DNA of 64,000 nt, taken from Escherichia phage JM10. Positions 3,142-58,528 of the stretch are shown here, piece by piece; position 1 is the stretch's first letter; every line of letters starts with the position of its first letter. The stretch is taken from the sequence record PP400777; one strand, 5' to 3'. A model generated the notes under the pieces. That model was not told the DNA's origin, did no database searches, and saw nothing but the letters and a program-made list of their open reading frames with translations. Position numbers and translations under genes: made by a program.

Positions 3142-3572
3142 TATTGTTCCTTAAAATGTGCTTTCAACATTTGATACAAAGACCATGCCTGGTCGTTATT
3201 TTCGATAGTAATTGTCATCACCGGAAATTCAGACAATTCGTCAAGTTCACCAGAATCTTGCTCTTCGGACGCTTGATACGGATTTCCCACTTCGTCAAAG
3301 AACTCTGCTTCATTCGTGGAGAGCCAGATAAAGTTTTCATCAAGAATATCACCGCCTGTTGCGTATCCAACCGTGCCAGTAGATGTCACAATTTTAGTAG
3401 GACGACCAAGATGGTCAACATCTAATACTTTAAATGGTTCCATGCCAAGACGTCGTGCATAAATCCCATTATCAGTGTGGCCTTTAATAAACTCTTCTTG
3501 GGCACGTTTATCTTTAAATTGGTACCATGAGTTAACGCGGAATTTATTAGCCATTAGTAAGTTTCCTTCCAA
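3141..3572 (-). CDS. hypothetical protein, 143 aa
   Basis: ORF track; tightly packed minus-strand operon. Confidence 0.55.
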
Positions 3573-12239: not shown

Positions 12240-12247
12240 TATTTATA
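12240..12247 (-). promoter_or_regulatory. late promoter TATAAATA upstream of soc
   Basis: Plus tatttata; 32 nt upstream of soc ATG; SD AAGGAG. Confidence 0.7.
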
Positions 12248-12253
12248 ACTTAA

Positions 12254-12775
12254 TCAGTAACCATTATCCTGGCGTTCAAAGTTGTGTTGGTTTTTCAAGT
12301 AGTAAAGTTTAAAGATTTCTTCAGCGGAAAGACCCAGACCTTGGAACATATTCAGAACAAAGTGGAGGATATCAATCATTTCGAATTTAATTTCAAGCTG
12401 GTCTTCAGGAGACAGTTCATCGATACGACGATTTCGATATTCAGCATGTTGTGCTTTCCATGGCTTCCATACACTGCTGGCGGCTTTTTCACCATTGCTC
12501 ATACCACCAAGTGAAGTCAGCAGTTCACGGAATTCATCATCAATATAATCTTTCTGATTACGCAGCCAATCAACAACATCGCCAGCAGTGGCCAATTCAT
12601 CAGGATGTTTGTTATGTTCAGGCTTGTCATTTGCCAGACGAACCTGTAAAGATTTCTGCATATCAAGCATTACCTGCAGTGGGTCTTTATCTTCGTGAAT
12701 CAGAGCATTAAAATAAGCTTCTTCTGCTTTATCAACACCAGAAATAAGTTGGGAACATTCGTTAAAGTGTGCCAT
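12254..12775 (-). CDS. 56: dCTPase/dUTPase gp56 (MazG-like), start at MAHFNECS
   Basis: Synteny soc-56-61; size ~173 aa. Confidence 0.7.
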   Translation of the reverse strand: MAHFNECSQLISGVDKAEEAYFNALIHEDKDPLQVMLDMQKSLQVRLANDKPEHNKHPDELATAGDVVDWLRNQKDYIDDEFRELLTSLGGMSNGEKAASSVWKPWKAQHAEYRNRRIDELSPEDQLEIKFEMIDILHFVLNMFQGLGLSAEEIFKLYYLKNQHNFERQDNGY

Positions 12776-12864
12776 TATTTTTCCTTTCAATTCAGTATAA
12801 GAGAGTTAATTCTAACATTAATTTTATAAAGCGTAATAAATAATAAGGTAACTAAGGAGATATT

Positions 12865-13062
12865 ATGTTTAAACTTCCATCGTTAATCAACGCTATTAAA
12901 GGCAATAAAAAGAAAACTGCTATCGCTGCAATAGTTGTAGGTGGCATTATTTCATGGAACTTCGGGATTGCACCATTGTTAGTTGCCCATGGTGTTATGG
13001 TTCCTTCTGTTCCATTGGATACTGTAGTTGACCTAGCTTTTGCTGTTATAGGGCTGGTCTAA
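12865..13062 (+). CDS. small hydrophobic membrane protein, 65 aa, plus strand
   Basis: SD ctaaggag 7 nt before ATG; fills the only gap between 56 and 61; TM-like AIAAIVVGGIISWNFGIAPLLVAHGVMV. Confidence 0.55.
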   Translation: MFKLPSLINAIKGNKKKTAIAAIVVGGIISWNFGIAPLLVAHGVMVPSVPLDTVVDLAFAVIGLV

Positions 13063-14081
13063 ATTTTAGAATACTGAGATAATCTCATTTTAGCATGCAA
13101 CCCACTTGAAATATTCTGTTTCATATATTCTAAAATTTCTTGTGGTGTTGCATTTTCTTTCATTACCATATCATTCACATCCTTTGATCTCCATGGAGCT
13201 CGATCCCAGAACATGACACGTTCGCCCGCATCAACTAATCGCTTCATGCGAGCTATAGTATCTGGATGCCTAGGTTCATTATCCATTACCCATACCCGAC
13301 GTTCTTTAAATGGTACCACATCTAAATCTATTGAGCCGCCTGTAATAGCGATTGCATTGGGTATGAATAAACTATCAATAGGGCCTTCCATTACCCAGAC
13401 GTCCCCTTCCTTAACACGTTCAACACCATAAATTTTTGTTGCAGACTCAAACGCTTTAATAGTGATATATTTCTGAGGAGCATCTTTACGAAGTGCACGT
13501 CCTTGGAATGACTCGGCCTTCCCATCTTTATTAAAAATAGGAATCACTAAACGTGGTTCAGGAATCTCTTTCTTATATGTGCCAGGTTGAATCTTGTTGA
13601 CCAATTTAGGCCATTCTAATGTGAACCATAATCTGTTCCATGATTCTTTAGGAATACACCGAGACTTAACATATTTCACAATAGGATGCTCTTCAGGCAA
13701 CTTGTCTAGACGAGAACAAGACGGCAAAGAATTTATAGTCTTTTTCTCCGGTTCTGGTTTATGTTCAGGAACCTTTTCAATTTTTGGTTCCATTCTAGCT
13801 TTTTCTTTACGAACTTCCATTAGATATTCGCGATAAAGCTCTTCATCATACTCCTTTAAGTATCCGGAAATTGTATTGTGGTATTGACAGTTATAGCAAT
13901 GTACATTACCAGGAGTACCGCCATAATACCATCCGCGAGCTTTCATTGCATCTGTCTGGGAGTCGCCACAAACTGGACATCGAAATGTTAATTTAAATGT
14001 GCTTGAATTATTGATTTGTCTAAAACGAGGTAGGTGAGAAAACGCACGATAAGCAAATTCATTATCTATCCATTCAGCCAT
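13059..14081 (-). CDS. 61: DNA primase gp61
   Basis: 340 aa; zinc ribbon CPVCGD...CYNC; TOPRIM-like C-terminus. Confidence 0.9.
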   Translation of the reverse strand: MAEWIDNEFAYRAFSHLPRFRQINNSSTFKLTFRCPVCGDSQTDAMKARGWYYGGTPGNVHCYNCQYHNTISGYLKEYDEELYREYLMEVRKEKARMEPKIEKVPEHKPEPEKKTINSLPSCSRLDKLPEEHPIVKYVKSRCIPKESWNRLWFTLEWPKLVNKIQPGTYKKEIPEPRLVIPIFNKDGKAESFQGRALRKDAPQKYITIKAFESATKIYGVERVKEGDVWVMEGPIDSLFIPNAIAITGGSIDLDVVPFKERRVWVMDNEPRHPDTIARMKRLVDAGERVMFWDRAPWRSKDVNDMVMKENATPQEILEYMKQNISSGLHAKMRLSQYSKI

Positions 14082-17329: not shown

Positions 17330-17704
17330 TTAAAAACGTAATTTAGATATATCTGCGTTGATTTCGTTTTGGTTTGCGTCGTATGCAATTAAACGAACCG
17401 CTTTAGATGGGTCATTCAATGCATAGAAATGATGGAACATTGCTCGAACGATATCACCATTTACGAGTTCTACCTGGATAGGAGAACCTTTTTCGAGTTG
17501 GAAATGTTCATAAGCTTTGATGGTTCGTAGATAATCAAGTTTTTGATTTCCGGCTCCAACAATTTGTACGATACGTTTGCCAATGTTTTCCATACGAGAT
17601 ACAATAGTTTTAGGAGCAAGAATAACGTAGGTTGCCAGCGGAGAAACTACTTCAACAGTTGTGTTTTCGGTGATTGCAGTAAAAATTGCTTGAGACATAT
17701 TCAT
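17330..17704 (-). CDS. hypothetical protein, 124 aa
   Basis: ORF track. Confidence 0.55.
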   Translation of the reverse strand: MNMSQAIFTAITENTTVEVVSPLATYVILAPKTIVSRMENIGKRIVQIVGAGNQKLDYLRTIKAYEHFQLEKGSPIQVELVNGDIVRAMFHHFYALNDPSKAVRLIAYDANQNEINADISKLRF

Positions 17705-17733: not shown

Positions 17734-17763
17734 ATCATATCATGCCTAGAGGAAGATGTAAAC
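17734..17763 (-). promoter_or_regulatory. early promoter (-35 GTTTAC, 18 nt, -10 TATGAT)
   Basis: Minus strand GTTTACATCTTCCTCTAGGCATGATATGAT. Confidence 0.5.
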
Positions 17764-17767
17764 CCCG

Positions 17768-17792
17768 AAAGGAGACCGAAGTCTCCTTTTTA
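17768..17792. terminator. GC-rich hairpin after gene 41; U-tract is on the plus-strand side (orientation ambiguous)
   Basis: Plus aaaggagac-cgaa-gtctccttt then tttatt; on minus strand the loop is UUCG but 3' flank is UUUCGGGG. Confidence 0.4.
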
Positions 17793-19235
17793 TTAAAATT
17801 TTAGCTCATTGGCTAAGCTATCTAGGTCAGCCCGTGTTGCTTTGGCTTTACCTACGCGTTCCGTACGATTCACCTCTGCCTGACGCATCTGAGCACCTGC
17901 GTTTTCATTTACTGTGTTAGGTGTGTTCATGCCTTCTTGCTCAATCTCAATCCATTTCTGGTTGCCTTTACGTACACCCATCAGGAATTTATTCCACTTA
18001 TTCTTATCACCGTATCGTGATTTGATTTGTTTGATAAGTTGTTGTTCAGCTTGTGCAAGTTCTTCGGTTTCAATTACAGCCAACATGAAATCTGCCGTTG
18101 CTGGTAAACCTGCTGATTCTGCGATATCACTCATGTTCATGTCTGAAGCATCCCATGCTGCACGTCCTACTTGAGCTGCGGTCCATAGAACTGTTTCAGA
18201 TTCTACTGCTAATGCACGAAGTTCTTCTGCGATAGCTTTAACTAAGGTGTAGCTATTTTCAGTGTAAACTCTGATACGACAAGACCCACAAATACCTAAG
18301 TAATCAACCATGATTACAGATGGCACAAAGTTCTTCTTAAGTTTTAACTCATTAAGCAATGCACGAAATGTATTAGCGTTAGCTCCACCAGTAGGATACT
18401 GTTTAACTACTAAACGTCCTAATGTGGATTTTGAACGCCATTTTTCCATCTTGGCTTTATATTCAGCATAAGATACGTTACCATCATCGATATCATCGAG
18501 TGATACGTCAAGCATGTTTGCATCTATACGCTTAGCACAAACTTCTTCAGCCATTTCCATGGAAATATAAAGAACATTATGACCTGTTTGAAGATAATCT
18601 GCAGCAAGTGAACAAAGGCCTAAAGATTTACCAACGTTAACACCGGCCATTAAAACATTTAGTGTACCTGTTTCAGCACCACCTTTAGTGATTTTATTCA
18701 AAATGTTTAATTTGAACGGGACCTTACGTGCTTTATTTAGATAAGAAAGCCAGCGTGCTTCATAGTCTTCCATCCAGTCATGTCCAACATAACTATCGAA
18801 CGAAATTGAAAGTGCTTGACGCATAATATCAGGAATAGCTCCTACGTCAGGCATTTTCTTGTTACGTTGTTCTGGAGGTAGTTCAGCATTAGACTGAATC
18901 TCAATGATTTTGGACGTAGCATTATACATCGCTTTTTGCTGGACATATTTCTCAGTTTCTTTAACCAACCATTCGTGGTCTTCAGGAGTATCAGCCAATT
19001 TTTCAATTAGGTCTGAAGTTCCTTTATATTCGGCTTCAGTTAAAGAACTGTTATCTAAAGCCACCTTTAACGCATTGATAGATGGCATTGCATTATATTC
19101 GTTAACGTGGCTCTTTATAATTTTAAAGACATTTTTTGCCGGTCCACGCTCAAAGTAATCAGAATCCATATAAGGCCAGACCTTAGAAAAATAAGCCTGA
19201 TCATATACGAGATGAGACAAAATAATTTCTACCAC
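17793..19235 (-). CDS. 41: replicative DNA helicase gp41 (DnaB family)
   Basis: 480 aa; Walker A AGVNVGKS; synteny. Confidence 0.9.
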   Translation of the reverse strand: MVEIILSHLVYDQAYFSKVWPYMDSDYFERGPAKNVFKIIKSHVNEYNAMPSINALKVALDNSSLTEAEYKGTSDLIEKLADTPEDHEWLVKETEKYVQQKAMYNATSKIIEIQSNAELPPEQRNKKMPDVGAIPDIMRQALSISFDSYVGHDWMEDYEARWLSYLNKARKVPFKLNILNKITKGGAETGTLNVLMAGVNVGKSLGLCSLAADYLQTGHNVLYISMEMAEEVCAKRIDANMLDVSLDDIDDGNVSYAEYKAKMEKWRSKSTLGRLVVKQYPTGGANANTFRALLNELKLKKNFVPSVIMVDYLGICGSCRIRVYTENSYTLVKAIAEELRALAVESETVLWTAAQVGRAAWDASDMNMSDIAESAGLPATADFMLAVIETEELAQAEQQLIKQIKSRYGDKNKWNKFLMGVRKGNQKWIEIEQEGMNTPNTVNENAGAQMRQAEVNRTERVGKAKATRADLDSLANELKF

Positions 19236-37033: not shown

Positions 37034-37072
37034 GCATAATCATCTCTCAGAAAATACCTAAACCGATTTCTC

Positions 37073-37294
37073 TCATCGTTTCCACCATTTCTTAACTTGA
37101 AATGAATCAACCCACACGAGTTGTTTTGGGTCAGCCTTTACAATAGGCGGACAAATTTCTGTAATAGAACCGTCGTGATATTCCTTTTCAGAGATTTTAA
37201 CACAAAGAGGACCTCCCAATTTAAGGGTGAACCCTGCGTTCAGCTTCAGACGTTTAAACTTTGTTTGAACTAGCGCCATTAATGATGTCCTCAA
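37073..37294 (-). CDS. hypothetical protein, 73 aa
   Basis: ORF track; overlaps next ORF, start uncertain. Confidence 0.35.
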   Translation of the reverse strand: MRTSLMALVQTKFKRLKLNAGFTLKLGGPLCVKISEKEYHDGSITEICPPIVKADPKQLVWVDSFQVKKWWKR

Positions 37295-43527: not shown

Positions 43528-43790
43528 TGTTTCACCTCGTATTCATAAGATAATCTTATTTATACAAGATGACTGCTGCATGTCGCCATGCAGATTAGAC
43601 TATATCTTCATCTTTCGATGCCGGCCGTTTCGAATAGCATTAGCTTCTATTCTACACCGCTACATTCATCACGGTTAGTCGTTAGGCATTTAGTTCAAAA
43701 GAACATTTAGCACGGGATTGTCTACTAGAGAGGTTCCCCGTTTAGACCGGTTTTACATGAGCCTGAATTAAATTAACTCATACGCCTGGA
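42757..43790 (-). mobile_element. group I self-splicing intron interrupting nrdD (boundaries approximate)
   Basis: NrdD reading frame broken between 42782 and 43768; intron RNA contains CUAAACGGGGAACCUCUCUAGUAGACAAUCCCGUGCUAAAU, recalled as T4 nrdD (sunY) intron core. Confidence 0.75.
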
Positions 43791-51195: not shown

Positions 51196-52182
51196 TTATT
51201 TATAGTAAGAATTATGATTTTCGAGATAGACTTGCTCAAGGAAATCATCCCAGAAACTCATATCTACTTTTTGTTGCATACCATTCTTGGCAGCTTGTTC
51301 CGATGCTTGTTCAACTTGGTCAACGATATCTTCTAGGAATTCTTGTACAGTTTTAAACGTATGTTTACCAAGCTTAACATCGAGAATAAATGGAGCATCC
51401 TGAAGTGGGTAAACCAGGTCGCCGGTTTTGTAAATTTCCAATAATTGAAGTCCACCACGACATGCATGACTCAATGCTTTCCAGTCAATACCTTCGTTGG
51501 CTTCAGCCTTACGAGCACGTTCGCCATAGTTCTCTTCCAGTTTAACCAGGATGGCATTGAACTCTTTATTGGTTAACGTATCTTGGAATTTACGGTCTAA
51601 CAGATTATAGAATGTTTGCTTACCTGTTTTCTCGTTTTCGGTTTCAACCCACGAAGCAAATTCACCTACAGGCAGAACATTCTTCATATGTGATAAACGA
51701 ATTACTGCACCATTATCAAAGTATTGTCCCCATTCATTAGAACGTTTAAGGGCTTGACGAAGAACAGCCAGTCGAGAACCCTTGACACCGTATTTAGAAG
51801 CTTGCTTACGGACATACCCTAAATAAGATTTCATGTTAGTGGTATAGAAACGAGACCTGTTATCTTGAATATACTTCCATACATCAGGCAAATCAGATTT
51901 AACTACTAGACTTTGTGGAGTGTGAAGCATATCTAATGCGACGGTTTCACCATCCGCAGCTAGTTTAAAGAAATATTTGAGACTATATAACTCATGGTCC
52001 ACGTCGTCTTTTGTGTTCTTAGAAGATGTGTTATTCGTGTTCTTGCTCATGTGTTCTTTAACGTTACCGGACAAGATATCACGAGCATGAGGGACATAAA
52101 TTTCTTTAAAATCGACGTCAGATTCAGGAGTAGACGTTCCATAAAGGTGGCTACCAAAGTAAGCCTTAACAATCGTTTTCAT
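51196..52182 (-). CDS. nucleotidyltransferase (Pol-beta superfamily) with C-terminal helical domain, 328 aa
   Basis: N-terminal YFGSHLYGTSTPESDVDF (G-S...D-x-D) and third acidic residue in VALDMLH. Confidence 0.55.
   Translation of the reverse strand: MKTIVKAYFGSHLYGTSTPESDVDFKEIYVPHARDILSGNVKEHMSKNTNNTSSKNTKDDVDHELYSLKYFFKLAADGETVALDMLHTPQSLVVKSDLPDVWKYIQDNRSRFYTTNMKSYLGYVRKQASKYGVKGSRLAVLRQALKRSNEWGQYFDNGAVIRLSHMKNVLPVGEFASWVETENEKTGKQTFYNLLDRKFQDTLTNKEFNAILVKLEENYGERARKAEANEGIDWKALSHACRGGLQLLEIYKTGDLVYPLQDAPFILDVKLGKHTFKTVQEFLEDIVDQVEQASEQAAKNGMQQKVDMSFWDDFLEQVYLENHNSYYK
51197..51204 (-). promoter_or_regulatory. late promoter TATAAATA upstream of the secreted-protein gene
   Basis: Plus tatttata at 51197-51204. 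Confidence 0.5.
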
Positions 52183-52580
52183 TATTTAGCCTTATATTCA
52201 AGAGTAGGACAGACTTTTTCTTTACGAGCTTTAAGGTATTCACCTATTAATGATTTCTTACGTTCAATAGGCTCAAGTCCATTTTTAATTCGTTCTTGGT
52301 TTTGCGCAATGAGCTCAATTTCTTTATAATATTTTCTGTCGTTATATTTGTCTAACAACCAAGACGGACCAATTACTAACCCGGTAGCAATAAAATCCAT
52401 GACTGCTACAATTAAAATGCCTAAACCAATTGAAGCCGGAACTAATGTCCATAGACTGCTAAAAACAAAGAATTTAGTTAAAATTTCCTGGCAAATGATT
52501 GTGACTGCTGCTAAAATCACAAATCCAATAATTGAAGCAGCCAATACCGGGATTAACGTTTTCCAAAAATAAGCACACAA
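52182..52580 (-). CDS. membrane protein, about 3 TM; start codon uncertain (track ORF begins at TTG)
   Basis: TM segments LIPVLAASIIGFVILAAVTIIC and LGILIVAVMDFIATGLVIG; stop overlaps the NTase start. Confidence 0.4.
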   Translation of the reverse strand: MCAYFWKTLIPVLAASIIGFVILAAVTIICQEILTKFFVFSSLWTLVPASIGLGILIVAVMDFIATGLVIGPSWLLDKYNDRKYYKEIELIAQNQERIKNGLEPIERKKSLIGEYLKARKEKVCPTLEYKAK

Positions 52581-55778: not shown

Positions 55779-56088
55779 CTAGGCGGTCCACCATAGAATT
55801 GCATGCTGCCTTATCTTTAGGTTCCGCCACCGAGCATTCTAATATTTGCCATTTTTTATAGTATCTTTTAATTAAGGTAGACGCCTTGAACCTACTAGAC
55901 GCCCCATCTTTTTCTCCGTCTTTATACGCATATAACAATTTTTGTGAAAAATCTACTTTACACTCTTGACTTTTACCACAATAATCAGACGCCGTTCTGT
56001 TTGTATACTCCGTTACATCAGTATATGTAGTATTAGCAAGAGCGTTAAATGAAACCAAGCCAACTATTAAAGCCAACATTTTGGTCAT
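55741..56088 (-). CDS. vs: secreted protein, 115 aa (T4 vs position)
   Basis: Signal peptide MTKMLALIVGLVSFNALA; synteny. Confidence 0.5.
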   Translation of the reverse strand: MTKMLALIVGLVSFNALANTTYTDVTEYTNRTASDYCGKSQECKVDFSQKLLYAYKDGEKDGASSRFKASTLIKRYYKKWQILECSVAEPKDKAACNSMVDRLVDSYTRGLAASD

Positions 56089-58213: not shown

Positions 58214-58219
58214 ATAACC

Positions 58220-58528
58220 TCAATTAGAAAATAAATTTATCCAAGTTTTTTCTTTAATCAAAAATGGGTCGGAATTAAACGCCATTAAACTTTGAGTGAT
58301 TAATCCCTTAAATGGCCCATCAATAAATTCCATTTTGAAATGCGGAATACTAGTCATCAACCGTGCATTAGGAGCAGTACAAAGAACCTGCTGCCCTGCG
58401 AACGGACCTTTAGTCAAACGATATCGTTTAGGTTTAAAATGGTAAATCTCGTAATTTTCTACAAGAGCCCTTTTATTGCATACTGGGCTGTTATAACAAT
58501 ATTCAAAAACTTCAATAGTGGTCATCAT
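58220..58528 (-). CDS. hypothetical protein (start adjusted to MMTTIEVF)
   Basis: Track ORF 58220..58591. Confidence 0.4.
   Translation of the reverse strand: MMTTIEVFEYCYNSPVCNKRALVENYEIYHFKPKRYRLTKGPFAGQQVLCTAPNARLMTSIPHFKMEFIDGPFKGLITQSLMAFNSDPFLIKEKTWINLFSN

Follow-up and report, generated by a model that had tools for sequence, protein, structure and literature searches.

What is encoded by a short open reading frame (ORF) that is read from the plus strand, between genes 56 and 61, in a region whose other genes lie on the minus strand? This question is raised by a 64,000-nucleotide stretch of DNA from Escherichia phage JM10 (sequence record PP400777), which we refer to in full as the window and whose first letter is position 1. 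The window corresponds to the early-gene region of a phage that belongs to the T-even group and is of the Mosigvirus (RB69/HX01-like) type, and the 1.9-kb stretch around the ORF is 97-98% identical to many Escherichia phages, for example vB_EcoM_NBG1 and HX01. A first-pass annotation, made from the letters of the window, had described a hydrophobic protein of 65 amino acids (aa) encoded at 12865..13062 on the plus strand and preceded at a distance of 5 nucleotides (nt) by the sequence AAGGAG. All of these particulars proved correct, and the protein has a grand average of hydropathy (GRAVY) of 1.19. We conclude that the ORF is almost certainly a real gene, that its pattern of substitutions reveals a reading frame under purifying selection, and that this small gene has been kept beside the primase gene (gene 61) across many genera, T4 included.

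An ORF of this length is not significant by itself in AT-rich DNA, and the assignment of gene status is therefore founded on conservation rather than on length. Three independent within-clade pairs of homologues differ by 26.5 synonymous versus 16.5 non-synonymous changes, giving a ratio of non-synonymous to synonymous proportions (pN/pS) of 0.21 in the frame of the ORF (binomial p=1.1e-6) with zero stops. The other five frames exhibit a weaker selection signal or none, and between 2 and 26 of their codons contain stops. In comparisons between clades, pS reaches saturation (0.55-0.8) and pN is 0.32-0.37. Furthermore, length variants of the protein arise from in-frame deletions of 3 aa (members P0005 and P0032).

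These data bear on the possibility that the region is a non-coding spacer whose open frame is accidental, and which holds minus-strand signals: a terminator after gene 61, together with the middle promoter of gene 56 and an origin region. Such a reading would agree with the T4 reference genome, which annotates nothing at this locus, and with the annotation of Yersinia phage fPS-2, in which the 5′ end of the ORF is overlain by a minus-strand terminator, with a middle promoter immediately past it. On the minus strand of T4 (locus L002, ~3241-3275), the hairpin AUGGCAUUAACAAGUGCCAU followed by a run of U residues is present within the first codons of the small gene, and this element, annotated accordingly in fPS-2, looks like a terminator for gene 61 transcripts. 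We considered whether such a terminator is a conserved part of the ORF and rejected the idea, as it is absent from the window (12865-12900) and from the clade of Yersinia phage P8, where fold energies equal those of shuffled sequences. A spacer would also leave unexplained the excess of synonymous changes that is specific to one frame, the lack of stops in that frame in ~690 genomes, and a protein identity of 45-55% that persists despite saturated synonymous sites. Minus-strand folds in the window match shuffles (z=-0.01 and +0.25), the T4 hairpin is not conserved, and no Rfam family matches anywhere within the window. Because of the substitution patterns within and between clades, the in-frame indels and the overall conservation, we set the non-coding spacer aside as very improbable.

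The first-pass annotation had further called this ORF the only convincing plus-strand coding region in the window, a statement that is upheld by two crude checks on ORFs of at least 40 aa. In the first, a greedy map of minus-strand ORFs was drawn up, and among the plus-strand ORFs of 40 aa or more that fall outside it, the ORF at 12865 was the only one to combine an ATG start, a Shine-Dalgarno sequence and a protein-like translation. In the second, it obtained the highest codon-usage score among the 56 plus-strand ORFs of at least 55 aa that begin with ATG, with 0.347 bits per codon compared to 0.392 +/- 0.084 for bona fide long genes of the window.

The family to which the protein belongs is widespread among Tevenvirinae, and its members are microproteins of 60-70 residues. 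A tblastn search yielded a homologue in 692 phage records, and in 685 of these the match was near full length, with identities of 90-100% among Mosigviruses, ~55% in Tequatroviruses including T4, and ~45% in Gapriverviruses and a Yersinia phage. The JM10 protein is identical to those of vB_EcoM_NBG1 and mar005P1. It matches PHROG 2024 from end to end (E=3.9e-27, residues 1-65 on profile positions 1-65 of 65), a family also matched by each of 14 diverse members tested, and whose named members include RB32ORF030w (RB51/RB32), gp16.1 (Salmonella phage S16) and g031 (Yersinia phage fPS-2). Hundreds of Tequatrovirus and Mosigvirus records label their copy a ‘hypothetical protein’. When a profile was searched against 1.84 billion representative proteins, just 10 small clusters were recovered, all from the PHROG 2024-type family, and these led us to a second, more divergent subfamily carried by Gelderlandvirus (S16 gp16.1), Moonvirus, Jiaodavirus (KPV15), Enterobacter phages and a metagenomic T4-like contig.

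The T4 homologue resides at 17738-17938 on the plus strand of NC_000866.4, where 66 codons preceded by the ribosome-binding site AAAGGAGG encode a protein that is 55% identical to that of JM10. The record carries no feature in the 309-bp gap between dam (which ends at 17625) and gene 61 (which starts from 17935). Automatic annotations of T4 do call the small gene. Its exact T4 protein sequence turned up in raw-read assemblies alone and is absent from NCBI protein records.

At every locus inspected, the small gene is opposite in strand to the genes around it and lies directly against the 3′ end of the primase gene, except where a homing endonuclease gene (P8) or a 118-nt spacer (CJ20) lies between the two. 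This arrangement is seen in the window, HX01, T4, S16, Moon, KPV15 and the metagenomic locus L017, and the tail-to-tail overlap of stop codons with the primase gene recurs in T4, S16, Moon and L017. The upstream neighbour varies, and can be gene 56 (the window), dam (T4), a homing endonuclease gene (fPS-2) or other small genes (Moon and L017). The small gene and the core of its putative promoter are preserved at every insertion variant of the interval between genes 56 and 61 (fPS-2, P8 and T4). This interval is itself an insertion hotspot, having received dam in T4 and homing endonucleases in fPS-2 and P8, where they flank the small gene on one side or the other.

The gene had been described as a lone one, which is accurate for the window, where a search found no paralogue elsewhere. 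It does not extend to some Gapriverviruses (VR26/VR25-type), in which a tandem paralogue of the second-subfamily type is located directly downstream. This paralogue encodes 66 aa (MGTLFYQIWKLTSKKDKKLIMGFLALDIFLWNLLVVPIAATQGVHLPQVTMGHIHSIIGYFTGIPS) at 2707-2907 of locus L011, and is likewise present in loci L015, L016 and L021. The L011 copy begins 8 nt past the stop codon of the first gene and overlaps the stop codon of the primase gene. In Yersinia phage P8, a homing endonuclease gene has replaced most of the paralogue, leaving a remnant at 2185-2313 of locus L005. That remnant is annotated as a ‘DNA packaging ATPase’.

Features of the small gene, its product and its flanks in the window (positions are those of the whole 64,000-nt stretch)
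Feature	Position	Strand	Basis and details
65-aa coding sequence, protein MFKLPSLINAIKGNKKKTAIAAIVVGGIISWNFGIAPLLVAHGVMVPSVPLDTVVDLAFAVIGLV	12865..13062	+	ATG start, TAA stop; PHROG 2024, function unknown
Shine-Dalgarno sequence AAGGAG	12854..12859	+	5 nt ahead of ATG; read directly
Late-promoter-like -10 element AATAAATA, A(-13) variant	12835..12842	+	pattern search; 22 nt before ATG
Lysine-rich N-terminus MFKLPSLINAIKGNKKK			ahead of long helix
Long helix, residues 15-41, predicted transmembrane	12907..12987	+	AlphaFold2, hydropathy; holds W31-N32-F33 (12955-12963) and P37
C-terminal 24 residues	12988..13059	+	loop H42-P50 (conserved G43, P47), acidic D52, hydrophobic helix 51-62
Overlap of convergent stops, ORF TAA (+) and primase TAG (-)	13059..13062		4 nt
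Gene 56 (dCTPase / NTP pyrophosphohydrolase)	12254..12775	-	PHROG 173, E=1.6e-45; relatives' annotation
Candidate middle promoter of gene 56	12809..12833	-	CGCTTTA (12833->12827), 12-nt spacer, TAGAAT (12814->12809)
Gene 61 (DNA primase)	13059..14081	-	PHROG 47, E=1.7e-101; relatives' annotation

The small gene is divergent from gene 56 and convergent with gene 61. It had been said to fill exactly the gap between these two genes, which is true as an approximation. The gap spans 12776-13058, and the ORF occupies its right-hand 194 nt and overlaps the primase gene, whereas the left-hand 89 nt are left over as a divergent promoter region.

Several features of this promoter region suggested to us that the gene is probably expressed late in infection. 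When the 60 nt before the start codon were compared among eight lineages, whose ungapped identity is otherwise 21-42%, TAAATA was the sole 6-mer common to all, and none of 2000 shuffles yielded any common 6-mer. Three 5-mers are likewise common to the eight lineages, and the only one of these outside TAAATA is AGGAG. The motif containing the TAAATA core reads AATAAATA in the window, GATAAATA in T4, CATAAATA in three clades and ATTAAATA in two, and it accompanies the ORF regardless of what lies upstream, be it gene 56, dam, a homing endonuclease gene or another gene. The motif is of the T4 late-promoter type, an element found ~6 nt ahead of the transcription start, with no -35 element, at genes that depend on gp55, gp33 and gp45. 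In the window, the element is predicted to direct a transcription start near 12848, which would give a leader of ~17 nt in which, according to the predicted mRNA fold, neither the Shine-Dalgarno sequence nor the AUG is base-paired. Our search for a promoter of the sigma-70 type on the plus strand found none.

The strand of the gene points in the same direction. Early and middle transcripts of T4 are all of one polarity and late transcripts can be of either (PMC2988020, Geiduschek and Kassavetis), and the early genes that surround the small gene are all on the other strand. Late expression is therefore what would be expected, if the T4 polarity rule may be carried over to this Mosigvirus. Among 50 listed late sites of T4, 32 carry the perfect sequence TATAAATA and nine have A at position -13, which is the commonest variant of the T4 late promoter, and such variants are used both in vitro and in vivo (PMC2988020).

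Sites of this kind are scarce in the window. The sequence NATAAATA is depleted, with 13 sites against ~30 expected, of which three are on the plus strand, and VATAAATA occurs at seven sites against ~22 expected from shuffles. There are six occurrences of TATAAATA, all on the minus strand, including one at 12240-12247 that fronts the late gene soc. We cautiously interpret the absence of the perfect consensus upstream of the small gene as selection for modest expression.

The candidate late element also has a close neighbour on the other strand. The candidate middle promoter of gene 56 and the late element AATAAATA are arranged back-to-back at 12809-12842, within 35 bp. The CGCTTTA sequence resembles the MotA-box consensus, and in fPS-2 the equivalent site carries the annotation ‘predicted middle promoter’. 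CGCTTTA and TAGAAT plausibly constitute the gene 56 middle promoter. We take this site to be equivalent to the position of oriA in T4.

No plus-strand terminator was found before or within gene 61, and a late RNA that begins upstream of the small gene must therefore either run antisense into the primase gene or be ended by Rho. This raises the possibility that the RNA initiated at 12848 is itself the key product, which would shut down primase production late in infection by an antisense mechanism, would also be antisense to any read-through from gene 61 into gene 56, and would leave the ORF with a secondary role. It is in keeping with such a function that the 4-nt overlap of stop codons leaves no room for a terminator, that none is found on the plus strand through gene 61, and that the convergent arrangement is conserved in several genera. 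Yet an antisense RNA does not explain purifying selection at the amino acid level, the conserved Shine-Dalgarno sequence, the in-frame indels or the retention of paralogues, and the ORF is intact even where an endonuclease insertion (P8) or the 118-nt spacer (CJ20) precedes the primase gene. We therefore regard an antisense RNA as an improbable main product, and antisense control of primase as at most an additional role for a transcript that serves to express the protein.

What kind of protein is made? The first-pass annotation had proposed a small membrane protein divergent from gene 56, and on this point hydropathy, the AlphaFold2 helix, pN/pS and codon-level conservation agree. The AlphaFold2 model (mean predicted local distance difference test score, pLDDT, of 85) contains helices at residues 3-11, 15-41 and 51-62. 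Kyte-Doolittle hydropathy averaged over 19 residues reaches 1.9 in the JM10 protein and 1.8-2.6 among members of the family, whose GRAVY values are 1.19-1.61. These features make a single-span insertion into the inner membrane probable. The long helix has five lysine or arginine residues before it and none after it, where two acidic residues are found, a charge distribution that suggests a likely orientation with the N-terminus in the cytoplasm and the C-terminus outside. The C-terminal 24 residues are accordingly predicted to be periplasmic or at the membrane interface. Both subfamilies share the conserved core W-N-[F/Y]-x3-P-x-A-x3-G-x2-[L/V]-P followed by an acidic residue, in which W31, P37 and G43 are invariant and N32 is nearly so. 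Asn and Trp residues midway along a membrane helix are characteristic of specific contacts between helices.

This same architecture could be read as that of a secreted peptide, in which residues 1-41 form a cleavable Sec signal peptide and signal peptidase I frees the 24-residue peptide HGVMVPSVPLDTVVDLAFAVIGLV into the periplasm. The protein does have an n/h/c-like layout with lysine and arginine only in its N-terminal part, and the invariant P37 is located five residues ahead of the A41|H42 junction, a candidate small-x-small site that reads AIA|HG in T4 and ALA|HG in the Yersinia/Gaprivervirus clade. However, the hydrophobic helix of 23-27 residues is far longer than the core of a Sec signal peptide, and the best-conserved residues (W-N-F/Y and P) would lie inside the part that is supposedly disposable. 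In addition, the JM10 protein reads LVA|HG at this site, which puts a large residue at -3, and the second subfamily carries ALAYG, ASTHG or AAFYG at this point, from which no consistent cleavage motif emerges. Cleavage and release seem unlikely, and a membrane-anchored protein is the reading we prefer.

Another candidate function for such a protein is that of an accessory holin or antiholin, which would make the inner membrane permeable or act directly on the gating of the T holin. Small size, a transmembrane helix and probable late expression would fit this role, the tandem paralogues of Gapriverviruses are reminiscent of holin/antiholin pairs, and one UniProt entry, for the homologue in phage vB_EcoM_OE5505, bears the label ‘Holin’. 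This label is found on one entry against hundreds called hypothetical, and no Pfam or PHROG holin family is matched, the best hit being GTA_holin_3TM in one of 14 members at E=0.1, which is noise. The neighbours encode dCTPase and primase rather than lysis proteins, and a dual-start motif is not conserved, given that the extra Met6 occurs in the T4 clade only. T-even phages, moreover, already possess the T holin, the RI/RIII antiholin system and spanins. A direct holin or antiholin role consequently seems doubtful to us, and we return to a membrane protein that acts through association with other proteins.

Taken together, a real gene, late timing and a membrane-located product form a combination that we judge moderately probable. 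We envision that RNA polymerase carrying gp55 would transcribe the small gene late in infection from the deliberately non-consensus element AATAAATA (12835-12842), and that the short leader would supply a strong ribosome-binding site while the transcript continues antisense into gene 61. The lysine-rich N-terminus would remain in the cytoplasm, a single transmembrane helix (approximately residues 15-41) would cross the membrane, and the proline-containing loop and short C-terminal helix would be placed at the periplasmic face. Through its conserved intramembrane W-N-F/Y...P motif, the helix would then probably associate with another membrane protein or with itself, and this association could modulate an envelope event late in infection.

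Which envelope event this might be is a matter for conjecture. The first-pass annotation had pointed to exclusion and lysis timing as frequent roles of such proteins in phages. Lysis timing or lysis inhibition appeals to us most as a single guess, since it would be a late, membrane-based process of a kind typical of T-even phages, and we nonetheless advance it only tentatively. Counteraction of a host membrane protein or defence effector is just as tentative a proposal, and a part in membrane-associated virion assembly is perhaps a little less credible. Late expression fits a role in lysis or in the envelope better than one in superinfection exclusion. The T4 exclusion proteins Imm and Sp are made early, and since the known exclusion proteins of T4 act early and the small gene is apparently late, we consider an exclusion function improbable. 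The most expansive version of our proposal, which is possible but far from assured, is that T4 and all its enterobacterial relatives harbor an overlooked late gene for a membrane microprotein, sometimes present as a tandem pair, which a non-consensus late promoter would hold at low dose and which would control an unexplained envelope step at the end of infection. Candidates for this step would include tuning of lysis through T holin and RI, initiation of membrane-anchored heads or baseplates, and neutralisation of a host defence effector that is embedded in the membrane and triggered by late proteins. The transcript might, in this same proposal, also silence primase by an antisense mechanism.

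A number of observations weigh against this overall picture. First, the free energy of helix insertion is marginal for both the JM10 and the T4 proteins (+0.8 to +2.4 kcal/mol by a simple sum), and the same crude sum is clearly favourable only for proteins of the Gaprivervirus type (P8 clade). Second, the perfect late-promoter sequence TATAAATA is present upstream of the gene in none of the lineages, and for S16, Moon and KPV15 a start directed by the proximal motif would yield a leader of just ~7-9 nt, with KPV15 having a second motif further upstream. Third, the gene is omitted from the reference annotation of T4. Fourth, our literature search found no transcript, ribosome footprint or peptide that supports the ORF, and turned up nothing relevant on the ORF, on ribosome profiling of T4 or on unannotated small proteins of T4; the fPS-2 paper does not mention g031, and two transposon-sequencing preprints do not discuss the locus. 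Fifth, neither homology nor fold searches linked the protein to any characterised protein: Pfam gave no match for the JM10 protein, the best match among PDB sequences had E=3.5, Foldseek against viral structures returned family members only, and NCBIfam offered nothing usable. Finally, we know of no phenotype that maps to the small gene, and the functional part of our proposal is drawn entirely from the anatomy of the protein.

We also examined a likeness to AaeX, which takes the form P....F/Y-G-L-S/T-x-P-P-I..E, and rejected it. The similarity is seen in one of 14 members (E=0.013, 15.8 bits against a cutoff of 82), its E value is comparable to those of unrelated random matches, and the hhalign probability of 19% is at the level of noise.

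The small gene is ordinary in kind, and its practical interest derives from its omission from the T4 reference annotation combined with clear selection across the subfamily. T4 is a reference organism whose curated genome serves as the gene list for transcriptomic, proteomic and CRISPR interference (CRISPRi) screens, and a conserved, selected gene that is missing from this list (17738-17938, plus strand) is invisible to such studies. Small hydrophobic proteins are, in addition, routinely missed by mass spectrometry. Adding the gene to the T4 annotation would be cheap, and once annotated it would become a defined candidate for unexplained membrane events late in infection, among them lysis timing, lysis inhibition, membrane-bound assembly and escape from defences that act at the membrane. 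Given that hundreds of automatic annotations already call the hypothetical protein, we view the finding as useful rather than surprising.

Some further observations concern other ORFs and gaps. The plus-strand ORF with the second-best codon-usage score, at 52399, was rejected as an antisense frame within a minus-strand membrane-protein ORF. The latter (52182-52580) encodes 132 aa with two or three strongly hydrophobic segments and is apparently a small membrane protein of the early region. The HX01 RefSeq record contains three more tiny plus-strand coding sequences near the small gene (25-37 aa; HX01 locus L001 726-923 and 2068-2145), and the one at 2068-2145 (approximately 12767-12844 of the window) spans the divergent promoter region that separates the small gene from gene 56. 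These tiny coding sequences look like over-prediction. Finally, stretches of 200-300 nt within 58214-58524, 55779-56084, 43528-43767, 37034-37253 and 1165-1802 have neither a minus-strand ORF of at least 40 aa, nor a convincing plus-strand ORF, nor an Rfam match.

How does the protein compare to known systems? It belongs to PHROG 2024, from whose other members it differs in nothing, and with which its gene shares position and orientation beside the primase gene. By analogy, it resembles AcrZ, MgrB, MgtS and AaeX, which are single-helix proteins of 30-70 residues that bind a larger membrane protein within the bilayer. The likeness extends to a polar residue inside the helix (N32 in the JM10 protein), whereas there is no homology between these proteins and the one described here.

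Closer to home, the T4 proteins RI, Imm, Sp, Ac and RIII are also small, have an N-terminal helix that targets them to the membrane, and act on envelope events. RI in particular is likewise late and acts via a short periplasmic portion, but the periplasmic part of the protein studied here, at ~24 residues, is too short for an RI-like domain. None of these five T4 proteins exhibits sequence or profile similarity to the small protein, and their genes occupy different genomic locations. Imm and Sp are early proteins, in contrast to the late-promoter core found at the small gene; the JM10 protein matches neither the T4_Spackle nor the Imm family, and Spackle is encoded by a separate gene nearby in relatives. 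Class II and III holins, such as the lambdoid S21 pinholin and T4 T, are similarly late, small and inserted in the membrane, and the JM10 protein, like them, is likely to oligomerise via transmembrane helices. Unlike these holins, it has one full transmembrane helix, rather than two helices or one helix with a large periplasmic domain, its gene is not part of a lysis cassette, and it lacks a match to any holin family.

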